Source of the DNA: a virus
Lineage: Duplodnaviria; Heunggongvirae; Uroviricota; Caudoviricetes
Length of the DNA: 64,000 bases
IMG/VR virus record: IMGVR_UViG_2687453522_000001
Reading direction: 5' to 3' (one strand)
The translations under genes and the position numbers were made by a program. Shown here piece after piece: positions 18,242-26,766 of the stretch (position 1 is the first letter of the stretch; every line of letters starts with the position of its first letter). Under the pieces are notes generated by a model. The model was not told where the DNA came from. It made no database searches and saw only the letters and a program-made list of their open reading frames with translations.

Positions 18242-19969
18242 TTACTCAGAGTCACCAGCATCAATCGTGTTACCGGTCAGGAAGTTAATTCCGCCATTTT
18301 TTGCCATAGTCAGAGTTACACGGGTGAAGTAGTCAGCACCGTTGCGTGGATGCATATCGTTGATAGCCGAACCCCACAGAGTGGTTCGGTTGACTAGTGC
18401 CGGGGTGGTCGGATGCTGGAATGGGACAGCCGGGACTGCATCACCAGTTACGAAGCCCGCTTTGCCCGGATTTTCATCACGGACGTAGCACAGCACATCC
18501 ATTGGGCTGAACTGGATACCGTCGGCGGTCAGGTTCGTACAAATACCTTCTGGTACTTCGAACACTTTGACGTTGCCGAACAGAGTGCCAATGTAGTGGA
18601 CGTATGGGGTCTGGATGTAATCTTCTGCTGGCTGGAAGAAATCCTTCGGCAATTGTTTGAAGAAAGATGCCGCATCAGCACCGGCATACATCCCCATCGC
18701 ACCAGAAGATTTAACACGCTCAATAATACCGCGATATACCGTCTGGAATTTGCCTCGAATGATGGTTGCCCACACATCAAAGGTCTGGTTAGCTGGTAGT
18801 GCAATATCAAAGGAGTCGGTCGCAAGAGTTCGCCAAATCATGATACGAAGACGAAGCATATCTTGCTCATGGGACAGGTATTCCTTCAGGGTGCGGAACT
18901 GTAGGGAGCCAAGATCCAGACCAAATTCACGCTGTGCTTCATACGCCGCCTGTACCGTGTGCTCAGCCGCGATGACGAACTGGTTTGGGAACAGGGTGTA
19001 ACTCTTCATTTCGTGGTTGATAAGTGGGATCAGCTCAGGAGCTGCTTCTATATTGATCTCCGCCTCAATGGCGATCTCAGTGCCTTTATCCGGCGCTTTG
19101 GAGAACGACAGGGCAATCTGACCAACGTTGTAATTCAAAGAGCAAGTAACAGTGATTTGTTCGCCTGCTTTGTTATTGAATGTGTGAAGCAGAGTACCGG
19201 AGCCGTTATCAACAACAGACTTAATACGGTTAACGTAGATGTTTGTGCGACCTTTGCGAATCGGGACATTCTGACCTTCGACATCTTCCATCTTGAAGGT
19301 TGCAGTTTTGCTGGTGCCGTCGGAGCTTGCAACCAGCACATAGCGGCGGCGCAACTGGCTGTACACGCCAACGGATTGCATGTCCAGAACATCGCCAATA
19401 GCATAGGAGCCAAAAGAAGAACCCGCTACGTTAAAGATTTCATAGATTTCGGACTTGTCACGCGTAACCGGAATGAATGTACACGCATCAGCGGTAGCTG
19501 CCCCCAACTGAACAGGCAGGATCATCGCCAAGAATAAAGGCAGACGCATAACCCCGTCAGAAACACTCATCATCTCTGCCGCGACTGATTCCAGCATCGC
19601 TTTATTGGTGGCGTCCATGCTATTGCGGGTGGACTCAATCAGGCAGTTTTCCAGCGTCTGATGGCAGGAGGCCAGAATTTCCGGACGTGGCATAGATTTA
19701 TGTGTTGCGGCGTAGTCAGCCAGTGCACTTGCCCACGCTGTAGCGATTTGAGCGGTGGCATTATCAGAGATACCCGCAAAAATTGGGTCTTTACGTGCAG
19801 CTTCAAGGATAGATGCGGCACGCGCGGCATCATCTTTAATGAATTGGTTATCAGTACCGAACTGCGCAGTGCTTGCCCAGCCAAGCACAGCTTTAGAGCG
19901 TTTTGCGATATCTGCAATACGATTCTGGTATTCGCGTAAGTTACTCAATTTACTCTTCCTTAAACACAA
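18242..19969 (-). CDS. Major head protein-like (P1 gp23 position)
   Basis: 575-aa ORF adjacent to parS as in P1; the ORF-track start is a TTG, an alternative TTG at 19948 has an AAGGAAGAG RBS. Confidence 0.5.
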   Translation of the reverse strand: MCLRKSKLSNLREYQNRIADIAKRSKAVLGWASTAQFGTDNQFIKDDAARAASILEAARKDPIFAGISDNATAQIATAWASALADYAATHKSMPRPEILASCHQTLENCLIESTRNSMDATNKAMLESVAAEMMSVSDGVMRLPLFLAMILPVQLGAATADACTFIPVTRDKSEIYEIFNVAGSSFGSYAIGDVLDMQSVGVYSQLRRRYVLVASSDGTSKTATFKMEDVEGQNVPIRKGRTNIYVNRIKSVVDNGSGTLLHTFNNKAGEQITVTCSLNYNVGQIALSFSKAPDKGTEIAIEAEINIEAAPELIPLINHEMKSYTLFPNQFVIAAEHTVQAAYEAQREFGLDLGSLQFRTLKEYLSHEQDMLRLRIMIWRTLATDSFDIALPANQTFDVWATIIRGKFQTVYRGIIERVKSSGAMGMYAGADAASFFKQLPKDFFQPAEDYIQTPYVHYIGTLFGNVKVFEVPEGICTNLTADGIQFSPMDVLCYVRDENPGKAGFVTGDAVPAVPFQHPTTPALVNRTTLWGSAINDMHPRNGADYFTRVTLTMAKNGGINFLTGNTIDAGDSE

Positions 19970-20084
19970 GGCACTTGTGTGAATCCCTTTTCGGAAGAGA
20001 TTTTATTGAAAGTCACTTGTTGACTTTCTCGTGACAAGCAATTTTTTTATTTTTTTTCGGGAGTAGGGGAGGAAGGTAAAATCC

Positions 20085-24133: not shown

Positions 24134-24535
24134 TTAGTTGTCGTTTTCCGTACCTACTTCTTCGATCAACAAACTACTTGTATAGATGCGTAACGTATCA
24201 CCTTTGTAGAGGAATTGATAACCAACACCTCCTATGGCAGGGAGGTCGGGGAACATTTCAGAAGCAACCCCAGAGCAAATCACGGCGATACAGTCATCCC
24301 GCTGTACATCCTTACGCTCTGTACTCAAAGTTTGCTCTTCCCCGATTGCCTTTGTCATCTCCTCATCTTCGTACGCAACAGGGATATATTCAATCGCATC
24401 AGGCGTTTTGATACCCAGTTCTTCAGCAATCTCGAACGCCTGTTTAAATTGATCTGACCCAGGATATCCAACGGTAATACTCTCAATTTCGAACAAAGAA
24501 GTAGCGTTGTTTATTTCTTGTTTAACCGCAAACAT
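24134..24535 (-). CDS. Hypothetical protein (P1 upfA position)
   Basis: 133-aa ORF next to oriR. Confidence 0.5.
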   Translation of the reverse strand: MFAVKQEINNATSLFEIESITVGYPGSDQFKQAFEIAEELGIKTPDAIEYIPVAYEDEEMTKAIGEEQTLSTERKDVQRDDCIAVICSGVASEMFPDLPAIGGVGYQFLYKGDTLRIYTSSLLIEEVGTENDN

Positions 24536-24605: not shown

Positions 24606-24965
24606 TTAAATCTGCTCGCTGAGCTTTTGCTTCAGCAGATAACCTTCCAGCGGCCAGATTTTCTCAATGGCGTTCTTACGGGCCACCTTACGGCCAATCT
24701 CCGCGTCGAAATTTTCAGGGCTGGCACAGGCGCTTTCCCCGGTAACAATGAATCCATTGCACAGCACCAAGACACAGATGGTCAGGCTACGCGTAGAGGG
24801 ATGAACAGACAGCACCTCACGAACGCCTTCGTGCGCAGCGCGAATGCCGTCAAAAGCTGTGAAATAATGCTCTTCGGCAATCACACTCTCGATGTGATCA
24901 GGAGTCAGGCGTGGTGCTGTTTTGCCTTTGGCCAGAATCTCTTTTTCAATTTCCATATCGGACAT
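24606..24965 (-). CDS. Hypothetical protein
   Basis: 119-aa ORF, translationally close to the downstream gene. Confidence 0.5.
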   Translation of the reverse strand: MSDMEIEKEILAKGKTAPRLTPDHIESVIAEEHYFTAFDGIRAAHEGVREVLSVHPSTRSLTICVLVLCNGFIVTGESACASPENFDAEIGRKVARKNAIEKIWPLEGYLLKQKLSEQI

Positions 24966-24976
24966 AGTTTTTCCTT

Positions 24977-25309
24977 TTAGTTACCGCTGATAGCACGGTT
25001 GTAATCATTAACGTTGCGATTCTTCCTGTTAATCCCCTTCAGCATCGTTTCTGTATCGAGGATATACGCTGGCAGATCATCAAAATATTCACTGCTAAAC
25101 TCTGGCATTCTGCACATAAATGCACTTTTGGGGGCAGGGTGGTTAACCTTTGTCGGCGTCGGCGTTAAATTCGCTGATCGACTCCCGGAGCAACCGCTGA
25201 GTGTCAGCAGGAATGCGCTGGCGAACATTACCCGCCGCAACCAGTTGTTTCTGAACTTCAGCTTTTCGTTCCATTTGCCTGTCAGCATATTTGGCTTGTT
25301 CTGATTCAT
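24977..25309 (-). CDS. mlp: Outer-membrane lipoprotein Mlp; Rz1-like o-spanin candidate
   Basis: Signal peptide with lipobox LTLSGC followed by Pro-rich segment (LTPTPTKVNHPAP); likely real start at an internal ATG (25288 or 25228); 5' part lies in another frame inside the 3' end of the upstream gene. Confidence 0.6.
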   Translation of the reverse strand: MNQNKPNMLTGKWNEKLKFRNNWLRRVMFASAFLLTLSGCSGSRSANLTPTPTKVNHPAPKSAFMCRMPEFSSEYFDDLPAYILDTETMLKGINRKNRNVNDYNRAISGN

Positions 25310-25565
25310 TTTTCACTTCCTGGCTGTGAAAATGTTGCTCTGCTTTGTTCATCGTCTCAATGGTCTGGTTAAGATCCATTATTGACTTATCACGTTCCTT
25401 AACAGCCTGATCAAGACTGCCAATTTTCTCCATGGCTTGCTTTAGCTGATGACGTTCCCATGCAAACCCAGCACCAACAAGTGCGCAAATCAGAACAAGA
25501 ACACCAGTAGCAGCAAGTTTCTCCTTCAAAGACAAAGCTGTTTTTAACGTAGAAAAGAATGACAT
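25143..25565 (-). CDS. Rz-like i-spanin candidate (type II membrane protein with periplasmic coiled coil)
   Basis: 140 aa from ATG 25565 (AGGAGG RBS); single N-terminal TM (LAATGVLVLICALVGAGFAW) followed by charged helical region; overlaps mlp by about 167 nt in a different frame. Confidence 0.55.
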   Translation of the reverse strand: MSFFSTLKTALSLKEKLAATGVLVLICALVGAGFAWERHQLKQAMEKIGSLDQAVKERDKSIMDLNQTIETMNKAEQHFHSQEVKNESEQAKYADRQMERKAEVQKQLVAAGNVRQRIPADTQRLLRESISEFNADADKG

Positions 25566-25604
25566 GTCTTCCTCCTGAAGAAAAATTATCAATGAAGTCC
25601 TTTG

Positions 25605-26393
25605 TTACTGTGCCGCTTTGTTTAATTCATCAAGAACAGAATCAGGAACCAAAGCGGCAACTGCGCTGGCTGTGCTGACCTTATTTGCTGATGCTTCCGC
25701 AAGAGCGGTACCGATAGCATGGTTATAAGCAGTTATGGCTACGTTGGCGCTTTCATTCGCTCGTTCATACTGCTGTTGTAACGCAGTTGTGGGCGCTGTT
25801 GTCTGGTTGAAAACAACCCCAAACTGTTCAGTTGCTACTTTCAGAGATTCAATTTGCTCTTCTGTTAGTGCTGGTGGGGGAGTGGCAGTGCCGCCGCCTG
25901 AACCAGAGCCTGACGAGCTTCCTGAGCCAGTGTTAAGGGTCTGGTTAATCTCCCCCATAGCAGCGACTAAACTTGTTGTATTAAGCGCGTTAACAGCGTC
26001 CTCAAGCGATTTAGTAATATTCACATCACCAATGGCAATAGAGATCGGCAGTTCTGAAACTTCTCGCTCATTAGCACGGCAGTAAACATCCCAACCAATA
26101 TCGAGTTGAAGCAGCATTGACAGATCTGCATAACCAGCCAACAGGTCCGCGTGCTTAGTTGCCAGTTCTCCAATGTTCGTTAAGCCGGTTGTGGTTGTTC
26201 TGATCGTTGAAACATAGCTGGTAATAGTGTCGGGATAGACAATTGTATCCAGAATTAATCCGGTCAATTCTTCTGCAAGCAGTTTTGCTGTGTTAGCACT
26301 GTTTCGTGCCGATGTTATGGCACCAGGTGTTTTCATCCCACCGGCGGCGGCCAATTTTTTATATGCGGATAACTGGTAGTCTTTTTCCAGCAT
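25605..26393 (-). CDS. Hypothetical protein with Gly/Ser-rich linker
   Basis: 263 aa from ATG 26393 (AGGAGA RBS); internal GSGSSSGSGSGGG linker. Confidence 0.5.
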   Translation of the reverse strand: MLEKDYQLSAYKKLAAAGGMKTPGAITSARNSANTAKLLAEELTGLILDTIVYPDTITSYVSTIRTTTTGLTNIGELATKHADLLAGYADLSMLLQLDIGWDVYCRANEREVSELPISIAIGDVNITKSLEDAVNALNTTSLVAAMGEINQTLNTGSGSSSGSGSGGGTATPPPALTEEQIESLKVATEQFGVVFNQTTAPTTALQQQYERANESANVAITAYNHAIGTALAEASANKVSTASAVAALVPDSVLDELNKAAQ

Positions 26394-26401
26394 GATATCT
26401 C

Positions 26402-26686
26402 CTAACTTACCTGAACCAGGCCGTCTCCGGATGCTACGGTAGATCCGCATGAAACAGGGTCACCAACGCATACGATCCCTTTACCATTGACGGTAAACCA
26501 TGCCCTGGTTGATATAGCTTGCCCACCGTGCGTACTGTTTCCATCGGTATGCTGTGCATATTGCTTACCATCAACTAACACTTCGACTCCGTTGACTTTA
26601 AGTAGTGGTTCACTCTCTACAGGAGGCCTGGATGGGAATCCTCCGTGCCCCGAACAAATGCTGTCTTTTGTTGCAATACTTGCCAC
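26402..26686 (-). CDS. PAAR-like small protein (tentative)
   Basis: 94-aa ORF with GTG start; Gly/His-rich pattern (ICSGHGG...THGGQAIS...VCVGDPVSCGS) reminiscent of PAAR spike-tip domains. Confidence 0.4.
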   Translation of the reverse strand: MASIATKDSICSGHGGFPSRPPVESEPLLKVNGVEVLVDGKQYAQHTDGNSTHGGQAISTRAWFTVNGKGIVCVGDPVSCGSTVASGDGLVQVS

Positions 26687-26766
26687 GTCATCACCAATTA
26701 TTTGCTCTGGTTTTCGTTATTTTAACTTAGGTTACTTGTGGTCTATATGGTGTTAACTATTGCATG

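Follow-up and report, generated by a model that had tools for sequence, protein, structure and literature searches.

On the minus strand of the window, i.e., the whole stretch of 64,000 nucleotides that was analysed, lie two partly superimposed genes, which are ppfA and mlp of P1 (Table 1), the window being a P1-like phage-plasmid. As is apparent from the sequence and the list of open reading frames (ORFs), mlp is read in the +1 frame relative to ppfA, starts inside the 3' end of the latter, as the initial annotation had described for the gene bearing the lipobox, and runs 166 nt beyond its end. The arrangement is thus that of an o-spanin gene overlapping an i-spanin gene on the same strand. 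The Shine-Dalgarno (SD) site of ppfA is given identically in Table S1 of Kongari et al. (2018; PMC6139136).

At the DNA level, the pair is 95.4% identical to that of P1 and up to 99% identical to those of other P1-like phages. PpfA shares 139 of 140 residues with its P1 counterpart (I45M) and is 99-100% identical to database proteins named "ppfA," and Mlp shares 107 of 110 (S7N, V32A, and M91K). With lengths, overlap, SD sites and lipobox being the same as in P1, the pair differs by strain-level substitutions only. The surroundings of the pair differ further, in that a gene of the Gp49/Sf6-gp66 family, absent from P1, is present downstream of mlp and the UpfA homologue is only 54% identical to P1 UpfA.

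Table 1. Features of the ppfA/mlp locus, with positions numbered along the window.
Feature	Coordinates	Strand	Description
ppfA	25143..25565	(-)	ATG at 25565 to stop at 25143; 423 nt, 140 aa; predicted i-spanin
mlp	24977..25309	(-)	ATG at 25309 to stop at 24977; 333 nt, 110 aa; predicted o-spanin, lipoprotein precursor
ppfA SD, AGGAGG	25571..25576	(-)	5 nt before ATG; sequence reading
mlp SD, AGGAAG	25316..25321	(-)	6 nt before ATG; within conserved PpfA codons Q82-E83-V84
Single N-terminal transmembrane segment of PpfA	25458..25517	(-)	ppfA codons 17-36; Kyte-Doolittle
Mlp lipobox, L-S-G-C	25190..25201	(-)	residues 37-40; mature protein predicted to begin with lipidated Cys40
Dual-coding overlap	25143..25309	(-)	167 nt; PpfA residues 86-140 and Mlp residues 1-56
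Mlp Cys65 codon, motif FMCRMP	25115..25117	(-)	sole periplasmic Cys in either protein; potential disulfide of a homodimer
Candidate P1-type (Lpa) late promoter	26719..26737	(-)	ahead of upfC, which opens the upfC-upfB-ppfA-mlp string; uncertain

Predicted properties of PpfA and Mlp

PpfA is predicted to comprise a short N-terminal cytoplasmic segment, a transmembrane domain (TMD) and then a helical periplasmic domain of 104 aa, namely the layout of an i-spanin, i.e., a small type II protein with a single N-terminal TMD and the rest in the periplasm. The Kyte-Doolittle score over 19 residues reaches its maximum of 2.35 at residues 17-35 (LAATGVLVLICALVGAGFA), no second hydrophobic segment was found elsewhere when the whole protein was scanned in this way, and the N-terminus plus TMD of PpfA is listed as 36 residues in Table S1 of Kongari et al. 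(2018; PMC6139136). The charges flanking the TMD, as read from the sequence, weakly favour an N-in orientation, with +2 on the N side vs. +1 on the C side here, and +1 vs. -1 in the second clade of relatives described below. Among the remaining 104 residues, 36% are charged and none is a Cys. The AlphaFold2 model (mean pLDDT 72.6) exhibits one helix at residues 13-110, a break at 111-119 and another helix at 120-138, where the break coincides with the conserved G112...P119; the best conserved stretch of PpfA corresponds to residues 85-140. The view of the 140-aa product starting at 25565 as an N-terminal transmembrane segment followed by a charged helical domain is thus borne out. Compared with the sequences of the PDB, neither PpfA nor Mlp returned a meaningful match.

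The 110-aa Mlp precursor is predicted to consist of a 39-aa signal peptide and a 71-aa mature protein. The lipobox Cys is followed at position +2 by Ser and not Asp, i.e., Mlp possesses the predicted lipidation site of an o-spanin and lacks the Asp associated with retention in the inner membrane; in nine Mlp sequences, both this Cys and Ser at +2 are invariant, the lipobox taking the form LS[GA]C or LN[GA]C. The mature protein contains 6 Pro in 71 residues, 4 of them among the first 25, as well as one additional Cys. Its initial description as Pro-rich is only moderately true since Pro amounts to about 8% overall, vs. about 25% in mature Rz1 of lambda, a polypeptide of 40 aa. The additional Cys, namely Cys65, is invariant in 9/9 sequences and aligns with the Cys of the LCPMP motif of P2 LysC; as such, the pair has one periplasmic Cys in Mlp and none in PpfA. 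Of 528 spanin systems, 507 have one or more periplasmic Cys in one component or the other, by which an intermolecular disulfide could form (PMC6139136), and the role of such residues in spanins is treated in section 12 of the same source. The combined periplasmic length of the two proteins is 104 + 71 = 175 residues, which falls within the 62-300 residues observed in spanins and is compatible with spanning the periplasm (PMC6139136).

The signal peptide of Mlp is unusually long (38-39 residues). For P1 Mlp, Table S1 of Kongari et al. (2018; PMC6139136) reports a LipoP SPII cleavage at position 39, and the signal peptide is flagged there as "too long" and without PROSITE hit. Codon 24 is TTG or ATG in most lineages and could serve as a second start in the same frame; in the alignment, it corresponds to Met1 of P2 LysC, and initiation there would leave a canonical signal peptide of 16 residues. 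A short start, be it at codon 24 or at Met28, was rejected as having no convincing SD, codon 24 being AGG in one of the loci (L089), and the long form was kept as the annotated start because the upstream SD and ATG are conserved in all clades.

Conservation of the two reading frames

The window holds 313 ORFs with a length of 50 aa or more; a loosely lipoprotein-like N-terminus is seen in 7 of them and a single N-terminal TMD in 5, and ORFs of these two kinds coincide at ppfA/mlp only. Because this is the sole coincidence in the window and is kept in distant relatives, the pairing exceeds chance. The +1 ORF of 108-110 codons is open in three clades, namely that of P1, a second one with 59-64% identity for PpfA and 66-68% for Mlp, and a third one with 31 and 48%, respectively; across these clades, Mlp has kept the lipobox Cys and the motifs FMCxMP, DDLPxY, and INRKNxNxN. 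Compared with the second clade, the nucleotides of the overlap diverge by 20-23% vs. 37-41% in the part coding for PpfA only, and in the part coding for Mlp only, 20-28 of 35-45 substitutions fall at third codon positions of mlp. Both ORFs have a normal length in 87 of 90 natural loci, and in one locus (L004) a 6-nt deletion leaves both frames intact. The most distant relative (L095) shares AGGAAG and then the ATG of mlp, and PpfA Q82 and E83, whose codons hold this SD, are invariant.

A HMMER profile search of 1.84 billion representative sequences led to about three full-length clusters outside the P1-like clade (P0102, P0108, and P0120), the other matches being fragments or coiled-coil noise. 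In a scan of genome contigs, 3 ppfA/mlp loci were retrieved, all near-identical, and no locus was found among viral contigs for the P0108 cluster. In a set of 77 P1-like phage-plasmids, both mlp and ppfA rank in the group of the 21 best conserved genes (PMC9603915).

From the annotation standpoint, mlp could be taken for a chance open frame or an artefact, with ppfA as the sole real gene, since it often goes uncalled by automatic gene finders, since in six divergent contigs only a non-overlapping stub of 45-52 aa is called, or nothing, and since the signal peptide is atypically long. A chance frame is nonetheless hard to reconcile with 108-110 codons open in three clades together with an invariant lipobox Cys and several motifs, with an excess of third-position substitutions in the non-overlapping 166 nt, as in a coding frame, with a conserved SD and ATG, with an ORF so rarely interrupted and spared, like its partner, by the deletion in L004, or with the homology of the product to P2 LysC presented below. 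The conservation data effectively refute this reading, whose probability we regard as negligible.

Relationship with the spanins of P2, lambda and T4

Mlp aligns with P2 LysC by BLASTP at E=4e-8, with 37% identity over 68 aa, and the alignment spans the signal peptide, the lipobox Cys, a Pro/Thr-rich stretch and the C-x-MP motif; judged by sequence, Mlp is a detectable homologue of this o-spanin. PpfA belongs with phrog_89 "Rz-like spanin" (E=1.2e-25), as does P2 LysB (5.8e-61), and Mlp matches phrog_30284 "Rz-like spanin" over its full length (E=3e-76). Crosswise, Mlp matches the LysC family phrog_456 (1.3e-5) and LysC the family of Mlp itself, i.e., phrog_30284 (5.4e-4). The best NCBIfam matches are the two partner families of P2, namely LysB TIGR03495 for PpfA (E=0.0013) and P2_Rz1 NF038368 for Mlp (E=0.023), with scores that do not reach the curated cutoffs (19.0 bits vs. 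92.75 and 14.9 bits vs. 27, respectively). Against LysC of Pfam (PF23793), Mlp gave no hit at E<=1, vs. 64.9 bits for the P2 LysC control. With hhalign, the comparison of the PpfA and LysB profiles gave a probability of 42.5% (E=2.6e-4) over 42 columns that correspond to the TMD and the first part of the helix, and that of the PpfA alignment with the single LysB sequence a probability of 0.9%. Because the comparison of PpfA with LysB at the profile level is weak, the case for homology rests on PHROG co-membership and the clearer match between Mlp and LysC.

The P2 pair is an experimentally tested overlapped spanin (PMC6139136). LysB and LysC are 141 and 96 aa long with a 146-nt overlap, vs. 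140 and 110 aa with 167 nt here, and in both cases the o-spanin gene begins in the +1 frame within the 3' end of the i-spanin gene. The two systems differ in that (i) the signal peptide measures 20 aa in LysC vs. 39 aa in Mlp, and the periplasmic Cys number 4 vs. 1, (ii) LysB carries periplasmic Cys that are invariant within its family, whereas PpfA has none, and (iii) lysBC follows Y, K, and lysA as part of the lysis cassette, whereas ppfA/mlp is unlinked from the lysis genes.

The label "Rz/Rz1-like" first given to the pair is apt for the class of device, i.e., a helical type II protein of the inner membrane with an outer membrane lipoprotein encoded in the +1 frame, but extends neither to sequence family nor to gene layout. 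At E<=1, neither PpfA nor Mlp hit the Pfam families PF03245 (Rz) and PF06085 (Rz1), for which lambda Rz and Rz1 as positive controls scored 183 and 72 bits, and neither matched the lambda Rz/Rz1 sequence families, phrog_13 and phrog_3198 among them. Membership of the lambda family was rejected on this Pfam result and on a probability of 1.7% for the PpfA alignment vs. lambda Rz in hhalign, and kinship of Mlp with Rz1 on a BLASTP alignment confined to the signal peptide. While lambda Rz1 is wholly embedded in Rz, mlp extends past ppfA in the "overlapped" manner of P2, and while lambda Rz has two periplasmic Cys, PpfA has none. In the latter respect, the pair resembles PseT.3/PseT.2 of T4, where the i-spanin is likewise without periplasmic Cys and cysteines are found in the o-spanin only; the T4 genes are separated, whereas ppfA and mlp overlap, and no sequence similarity between the T4 proteins and PpfA/Mlp appeared in the family scans.

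Genomic context and proposed role in lysis

The genes upfC, upfB, ppfA and mlp form a co-oriented and tightly packed string, within which no terminator is predicted. The neighbours of the pair are upfC, upfB, the Gp49-family gene, upfA and repA, where UpfC carries a PAAR motif (E=8.5e-6) scoring 26.4 bits, slightly below the Pfam cutoff of 27. With the plasmid replicon (repA/oriR) to one side and the dmt region to the other, the pair is remote from lyz and lydAB, and thus outside the lysis cassette that is the usual, though not obligatory, location of spanin genes. The P1 spanin genes have indeed been described as lying in "yet another unlinked operon" (PMC9025707). Spanin genes of T4 are also unlinked from those of the holin and endolysin (PMC6139136), and a location in the lysis cassette is therefore not required.

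For transcription of the pair, the P1 annotation predicts sigma-70 promoters only, namely P1ppfA and P2ppfA. Upstream of upfC, the candidate late promoter AAGTAACCT-N4-TAAAAT presents 1 mismatch to the Lpa box AAGTNACTT-N4-TANNNT, a pattern derived from LPlyz and hits in the window, where it occurs 7 times vs. 1.0 expected; its perfect hit at 20000..20018 corresponds to the annotated LP23 of P1. The site upstream of upfC has 2-3 mismatches in most P1-like loci and is absent in the divergent clade, so that a conserved late promoter is not established. The P1 RNA-seq papers make no mention of ppfA or mlp. CRISPRi knockdown of ppfA led to plating efficiencies of 1.3 and 1.2 and that of mlp to 0.24 and 0.19, and the two genes were scored as non-essential for plaques (PMC10695390).

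Taken together, it appears highly probable that the region encodes a two-component spanin of a P1-like phage-plasmid, of the "overlapped" type represented by P2 LysB/LysC, and the spanin architecture proposed by the initial annotation agrees with every sequence-level feature that could be checked here. Both proteins could otherwise be envelope proteins expressed from the prophage, with Mlp as an outer membrane lipoprotein that, like Bor, Cor, or Llp, serves superinfection exclusion or lysogenic conversion, PpfA as its membrane partner, and expression from sigma-70 promoters beside the plasmid maintenance region. The position between replicon and dmt at a distance from lyz and lydAB, promoter predictions by the P1 annotators that comprise sigma-70 promoters only, a knockdown that barely alters plating, and the original P1 names of mlp and ppfA ("membrane lipoprotein precursor" and "possible periplasmic function," respectively) would all fit such a role. 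It is nonetheless improbable when considering that the o-spanin LysC is a homologue of Mlp and LysB a member of the same family as PpfA, that a conserved overlapped i-spanin/o-spanin geometry is specific to spanins, that neither protein matched a PADLOC defence model, that the pair closely follows, in the same orientation, upfC of the PAAR spike-tip type and upfB, i.e., genes of virion rather than lysogeny type, and that distance from the holin and endolysin genes is shared with the T4 spanins. The same packed string without a predicted terminator, together with the PAAR motif, could also be read as a sign that the pair acts at infection and not at lysis, as an envelope-spanning device made with the spike UpfC and UpfB and aiding DNA entry or virion assembly at the membrane. 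Given that there is no sign of PpfA or Mlp as virion proteins, that homology points to lysis proteins, and that a lipoprotein signal and a type II anchor put both in the envelope of the producing cell, we hold this to be very improbable. A defence-system reading was also considered and rejected, none of the string's five genes having produced a PADLOC hit.

For the preferred reading, i.e., a spanin, the gene structure, topology signals, predicted helices, conservation of both frames and homology of Mlp with LysC are established by the present analysis, and the proposed model is as follows. PpfA would be inserted in the inner membrane via its single N-terminal TMD (N-in/C-out), from which a mostly helical stalk of about 104 residues would reach into the periplasm. 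After export, Mlp would receive a lipid at Cys40 and lose its signal peptide through signal peptidase II; because Ser and not Asp is at +2, the Lol pathway would deliver it to the inner leaflet of the outer membrane. Mlp probably homodimerises via Cys65. By analogy with lambda Rz/Rz1, T4 PseT.3/PseT.2 and P2 LysB/LysC, from which complex formation, disulfide, timing and membrane fusion are all transposed, the C-terminal parts of PpfA and Mlp would bind to each other and form a bridge crossing the periplasm, threaded through the peptidoglycan mesh. Once the peptidoglycan has been degraded by the action of the holins and the SAR endolysin Lyz of P1, whose genes lie at other places in the genome, the complexes would be free to move and change conformation, and would then fuse or disrupt the outer membrane as the last step of lysis.

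This spanin reading finds support here but has been published before. The identification of the P1 pair is credited to Summer et al. (2007), as cited in Bednarek (2022; PMC9025707), where ppfA/mlp are named as spanin genes by predicted function. In SpaninDB and Table S1 of Kongari et al. (2018; PMC6139136), PpfA is P1 gp064 "OIS" and Mlp gp063 "OOS," of type "ovl"; by the family rule used there, i.e., identity of 40% or more to the P1 proteins across 40% or more of the length, the proteins of the window belong to the family "P1." Several GenBank and RefSeq records name the pair Rz/Rz1 or Rz-like spanin, the RefSeq product for mlp being "Rz-like spanin," and many deposited records keep "PpfA," "hypothetical protein" or a truncated stub. 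The proposal that these are lysis genes rather than unknown periplasmic functions is thus supported by sequence, but is not new. As such, the assignment matters solely for annotating P1-like phage-plasmids correctly; these elements commonly carry resistance genes, and the overlapped mlp frame is often missed by gene callers.

As a side observation, the pair is linked to the replicon and the PAAR/UpfB string, the n-region of the 38-39-residue signal peptide is conserved and strongly basic, and the codon-24 start recurs among lineages. These features are behind the idea, to which we give little credence, that the pair may be regulated unlike textbook spanins, with the vulnerability of the outer membrane timed by the existence of two isoforms of Mlp or by the long form being exported slowly. 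If true, dual-start control of Mlp would be of a kind so far known for holins and not for spanins.

The ppfA/mlp pair and its coding anatomy

By its sequence, the window is P1-like phage-plasmid DNA; the 2 kb around the pair match P1, P7, SJ46, RCS47 and relatives at 95-99% identity. The assignment of ppfA and mlp as predicted spanin genes has been published before. In the P1 RefSeq entry, the genes are named ppfA ("possible periplasmic function") and mlp, the product of the latter being currently called "Rz-like spanin" and originally noted as "possibly involved in regulation of lysis (by homology)", and in GenBank, several entries for P1-like phages already have the pair labelled "Rz" and "Rz1". 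A passage in Bednarek et al. (PMC9025707) traces the P1 pair as predicted spanin genes to Summer et al. (2007); its Introduction has the i- and o-spanin names the wrong way round, evidently by mistake, the sequences giving a transmembrane domain (TMD) to PpfA (i-spanin) and a lipobox to Mlp (o-spanin). SpaninDB (Kongari et al., 2018; PMC6139136 Table S1) lists P1 gp064 and gp063 as an overlapped pair with one periplasmic Cys, namely gp064 with an N-terminus plus TMD of 36 residues and a periplasmic domain of 104 residues, and gp063 with a 39-residue signal ("too long signal sequence") and LipoP cleavage at 39.

Coordinates of the pair, its neighbours and late-promoter pattern copies in the window
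Feature	Position	Strand	Details
ppfA	25565 (ATG)..25143 (end)	-	140-codon ORF
ppfA Shine-Dalgarno	5 bases before ATG	-	AGGAGG; read from sequence
mlp	25309 (ATG)..24977 (end)	-	110-codon ORF, +1 frame of ppfA
mlp Shine-Dalgarno	6 bases before ATG	-	AGGAAG; read from sequence
Alternative in-frame Mlp start, codon 24	25240..25238	-	TTG
In-frame ATG, Mlp codon 28	25228..25226	-	from sequence
UpfC	26402..26686	-	94 aa, PAAR motif; Pfam PF05488, E=8.5e-6, 26.4 bits, cutoff of 27 narrowly missed
UpfB	25605..26450	-	281 aa; internal Gly/Ser-rich tract
Extra gene between mlp and UpfA homologue	24606..24965	-	119 aa; Pfam Phage_gp49_66, E=1e-33
UpfA homologue	24134..24535	-	only 54% identity to P1 UpfA
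Late-promoter pattern, perfect copy	20000..20018	-	coincides with annotated P1 LP23
Late-promoter pattern copy	19938..19956	+	≤1 mismatch
Further late-promoter pattern copies	11049, 40421, 54864, 58198		≤1 mismatch
Candidate late promoter, 33 nt upstream of upfC	26719..26737	-	one mismatch

PpfA, which differs from the P1 protein by one residue, possesses a single hydrophobic segment (residues 17-35, Kyte-Doolittle 2.35) followed by a 104-residue domain devoid of Cys and 36% charged. The AlphaFold2 model, computed from a ten-sequence alignment, comprises a helix at 13-110, a short break at 111-119 and a terminal helix at 120-138 (mean pLDDT 72.6). The N-terminal TMD and charged helical domain were accurately described in the initial annotation. 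The lipoprotein gene mlp does start in another frame inside the 3' end of ppfA, as was also proposed, the two genes sharing 167 nt. Mlp differs from the P1 protein by three residues and has an LSGC lipobox at residues 37-40, with Ser at +2; its 71-residue mature part bears one additional Cys and a Pro/Thr-rich start, but its description as Pro-rich was overstated (Pro at 6 of the 71 residues).

The annotated long Mlp carries a strongly basic 26-residue n-region, the charge of which is kept across relatives while its sequence is not. A start at codon 24, which aligns with Met1 of P2 LysC, would yield a canonical 16-residue lipoprotein signal peptide (MRRVMFASAFLLTLSG/C). This codon is TTG in the window and P1, ATG in five of six sequences of a second clade of divergent P1-like plasmids and AGG in L089, and a convincing Shine-Dalgarno sequence is absent ahead of it.

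Conservation of both reading frames

Related loci (n = 90) were drawn from IMG/VR, GTDB genomes and public assemblies, and both ORFs are of normal length in 87 of them. Identity falls to 59-64% for PpfA and 66-68% for Mlp in the second clade (P1-like plasmids of Salmonella, Cronobacter and Klebsiella), and to 31% and 48%, respectively, in a third element, L095. In both, the +1 ORF persists over 108-110 codons with its register unchanged, and a Shine-Dalgarno sequence and ATG are kept just past the point where the frame opens; across clades, the lipobox Cys, the Ser at +2 and the motifs FMCxMP, DDLPxY and INRKNxNxN of Mlp are invariant. Compared with the second clade, the window diverges at 37-41% of nucleotides where ppfA alone is encoded and at 20-23% where the two frames overlap; where mlp alone is encoded, 20-28 of 35-45 substitutions lie at mlp third codon positions, i.e., the signature of a translated frame. 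No other site in the window pairs a lipoprotein-like ORF with one that has an N-terminal TMD.

Several variants were encountered. In Escherichia sp. MOD1-EC7003 (L004), a 6-nt deletion in the overlap (equivalent to ~25150..25165) removes one GCCGAC unit of a tandem repeat, dropping "AD" from PpfA and "TP" from Mlp, and keeps the two frames open at 138 and 108 aa. Among database protein clusters, P0003 (195 aa) is a frameshift fusion of PpfA with the C-terminal part of Mlp, whose junction (...ADADK/VNHPAPK...) implies the loss of one G just ahead of the ppfA stop; P0010, P0017, P0019, P0028, P0039 and P0046 (195 aa, matching PpfA from its N-terminus) probably have the same structure, and the 195-aa form occurs in none of the 90 loci. 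P0041 (193 aa, with the same TP loss as L004) and P0014 (169 aa) are fusions with different junctions, and P0081 (109 aa) is a form of Mlp in which part of the interior is read in another frame. Such forms may be sequencing errors or come from decaying prophages. In the divergent contigs L085-L090, automatic gene calls cut mlp to a non-overlapping stub of 45-52 aa, or omit it (L087), a concrete case of what Kongari et al. (PMC6139136) describe as a bias of gene callers against overlapped o-spanin genes. A 5.9-kb contig labelled "MAG: Bacillota bacterium isolate OH_SBlB_19" (JAFAFU010000017.1; L002), encoding a PpfA 100% identical to that of the window, almost certainly comes from an enterobacterial P1-like element and was mis-binned.

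Relationship to known spanins and proposed mode of action

Membership of the lambda Rz/Rz1 families was rejected, since the Pfam models for Rz (PF03245) and Rz1 (PF06085), which score the lambda proteins at 183 and 72 bits as positive controls, gave no match to PpfA or Mlp at E≤1. By contrast, Mlp aligns with the P2 o-spanin LysC over 68 residues (37% identity, E=4e-8), spanning the signal peptide, lipobox Cys, Pro/Thr tract and C-x-MP motif; Mlp matches the PHROG family of LysC, phrog_456 (1.3e-5), and LysC that of Mlp, phrog_30284 (5.4e-4). The o-spanin homology is solid. PpfA matches phrog_89 "Rz-like spanin" over its full length (1.2e-25), to which the P2 i-spanin LysB also belongs (5.8e-61). 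Because comparing the PpfA and LysB profiles gave a weak result (probability 42%, confined to the TMD region), i-spanin homology rests on the PHROG profile. The best NCBIfam matches of the pair are the two P2 partner families, far under their cutoffs (19 vs 92.75 and 14.9 vs 27 bits). The P2 lysB/lysC layout is nearly the same (141 and 96 aa, 146-nt overlap), and P2 is an experimentally tested overlapped spanin system (Kongari et al., 2018; PMC6139136). From sequence and gene layout, the description that fits the pair best is that of a divergent "overlapped" spanin of the LysB/LysC type. A Cys-free i-spanin with a Cys-containing o-spanin is a common pattern, e.g., in T4 (PMC6139136).

At the bioinformatic level, the observed anatomy, conservation and homology of the pair support the two-component spanin reading of the initial annotation, and such a mechanism is considered highly probable. 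PpfA would be anchored N-in/C-out in the inner membrane with its helical stalk projecting, and Mlp would be lipidated at Cys40 and sorted to the outer membrane, since Ser at +2 is no Lol-avoidance signal. The C-terminal regions of both proteins would bind each other, Mlp probably dimerising via the invariant Cys65. With the peptidoglycan gone through the action of the P1 holins and of Lyz, the SAR endolysin, the PpfA-Mlp complex would collapse, whereby the outer membrane would be fused or ruptured. Complex formation, disulfide bonding and the fusion step we infer from work on lambda, T4 and P2. The sole functional datum for the pair is a genome-wide P1 CRISPRi screen, where plating efficiencies were 1.3 and 1.2 for ppfA and 0.24 and 0.19 for mlp, both scored as non-essential for plaques (PMC10695390); as spanins are dispensable in shaken laboratory cultures (PMC9025707), this leaves a spanin role unrefuted.

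Three other readings are weakly supported, and each is contradicted by what homology and conservation show. One, a lipoprotein expressed by the prophage for conversion or exclusion, is improbable; none of the five genes of the string matches PADLOC defence models. A role at infection, linked to the adjoining PAAR gene, is less probable still. That mlp is a spurious ORF is scarcely credible, a chance ORF being excluded by frame conservation, motifs, third-position bias and the intact loci.

Neighbourhood and late-promoter candidate

The genes are packed in the order upfC, upfB, ppfA, mlp, Gp49-family gene and upfA homologue, and no terminator is predicted in the string ahead of the last. The upfC and upfB genes, overlapping by 49 nt, lie upstream of ppfA on the same strand; family searches gave no assignment for UpfB. 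P1 homology of the window ends at 24973, right after the mlp stop, and a Gp49-family gene also follows mlp in most divergent P1-like plasmids. The stretch repA-upfA is listed as hypervariable, and mlp and ppfA are within the 21 most conserved genes of 77 P1-like phage-plasmids (PMC9603915).

A P1 late-promoter pattern, AAGTNACTT-N4-TANNNT, i.e., a 9-bp palindromic box plus -10, was inferred from LPlyz and the window matches; with ≤1 mismatch it occurs 7 times in the window vs 1.0 expected. The candidate upstream of upfC has 3 mismatches in P1 and 2-3 in most relatives, and is absent in the divergent clade; being so poorly kept, it is not claimed as a conserved late promoter. Elsewhere, a 275-aa ORF (33719..34546, +) has a canonical lipoprotein signal (MKKTLISAAIILGSLCLTG/C) with Asp at +2, an inner-membrane retention signal, and may be the P1 plp homologue, of no relation to the spanin pair.
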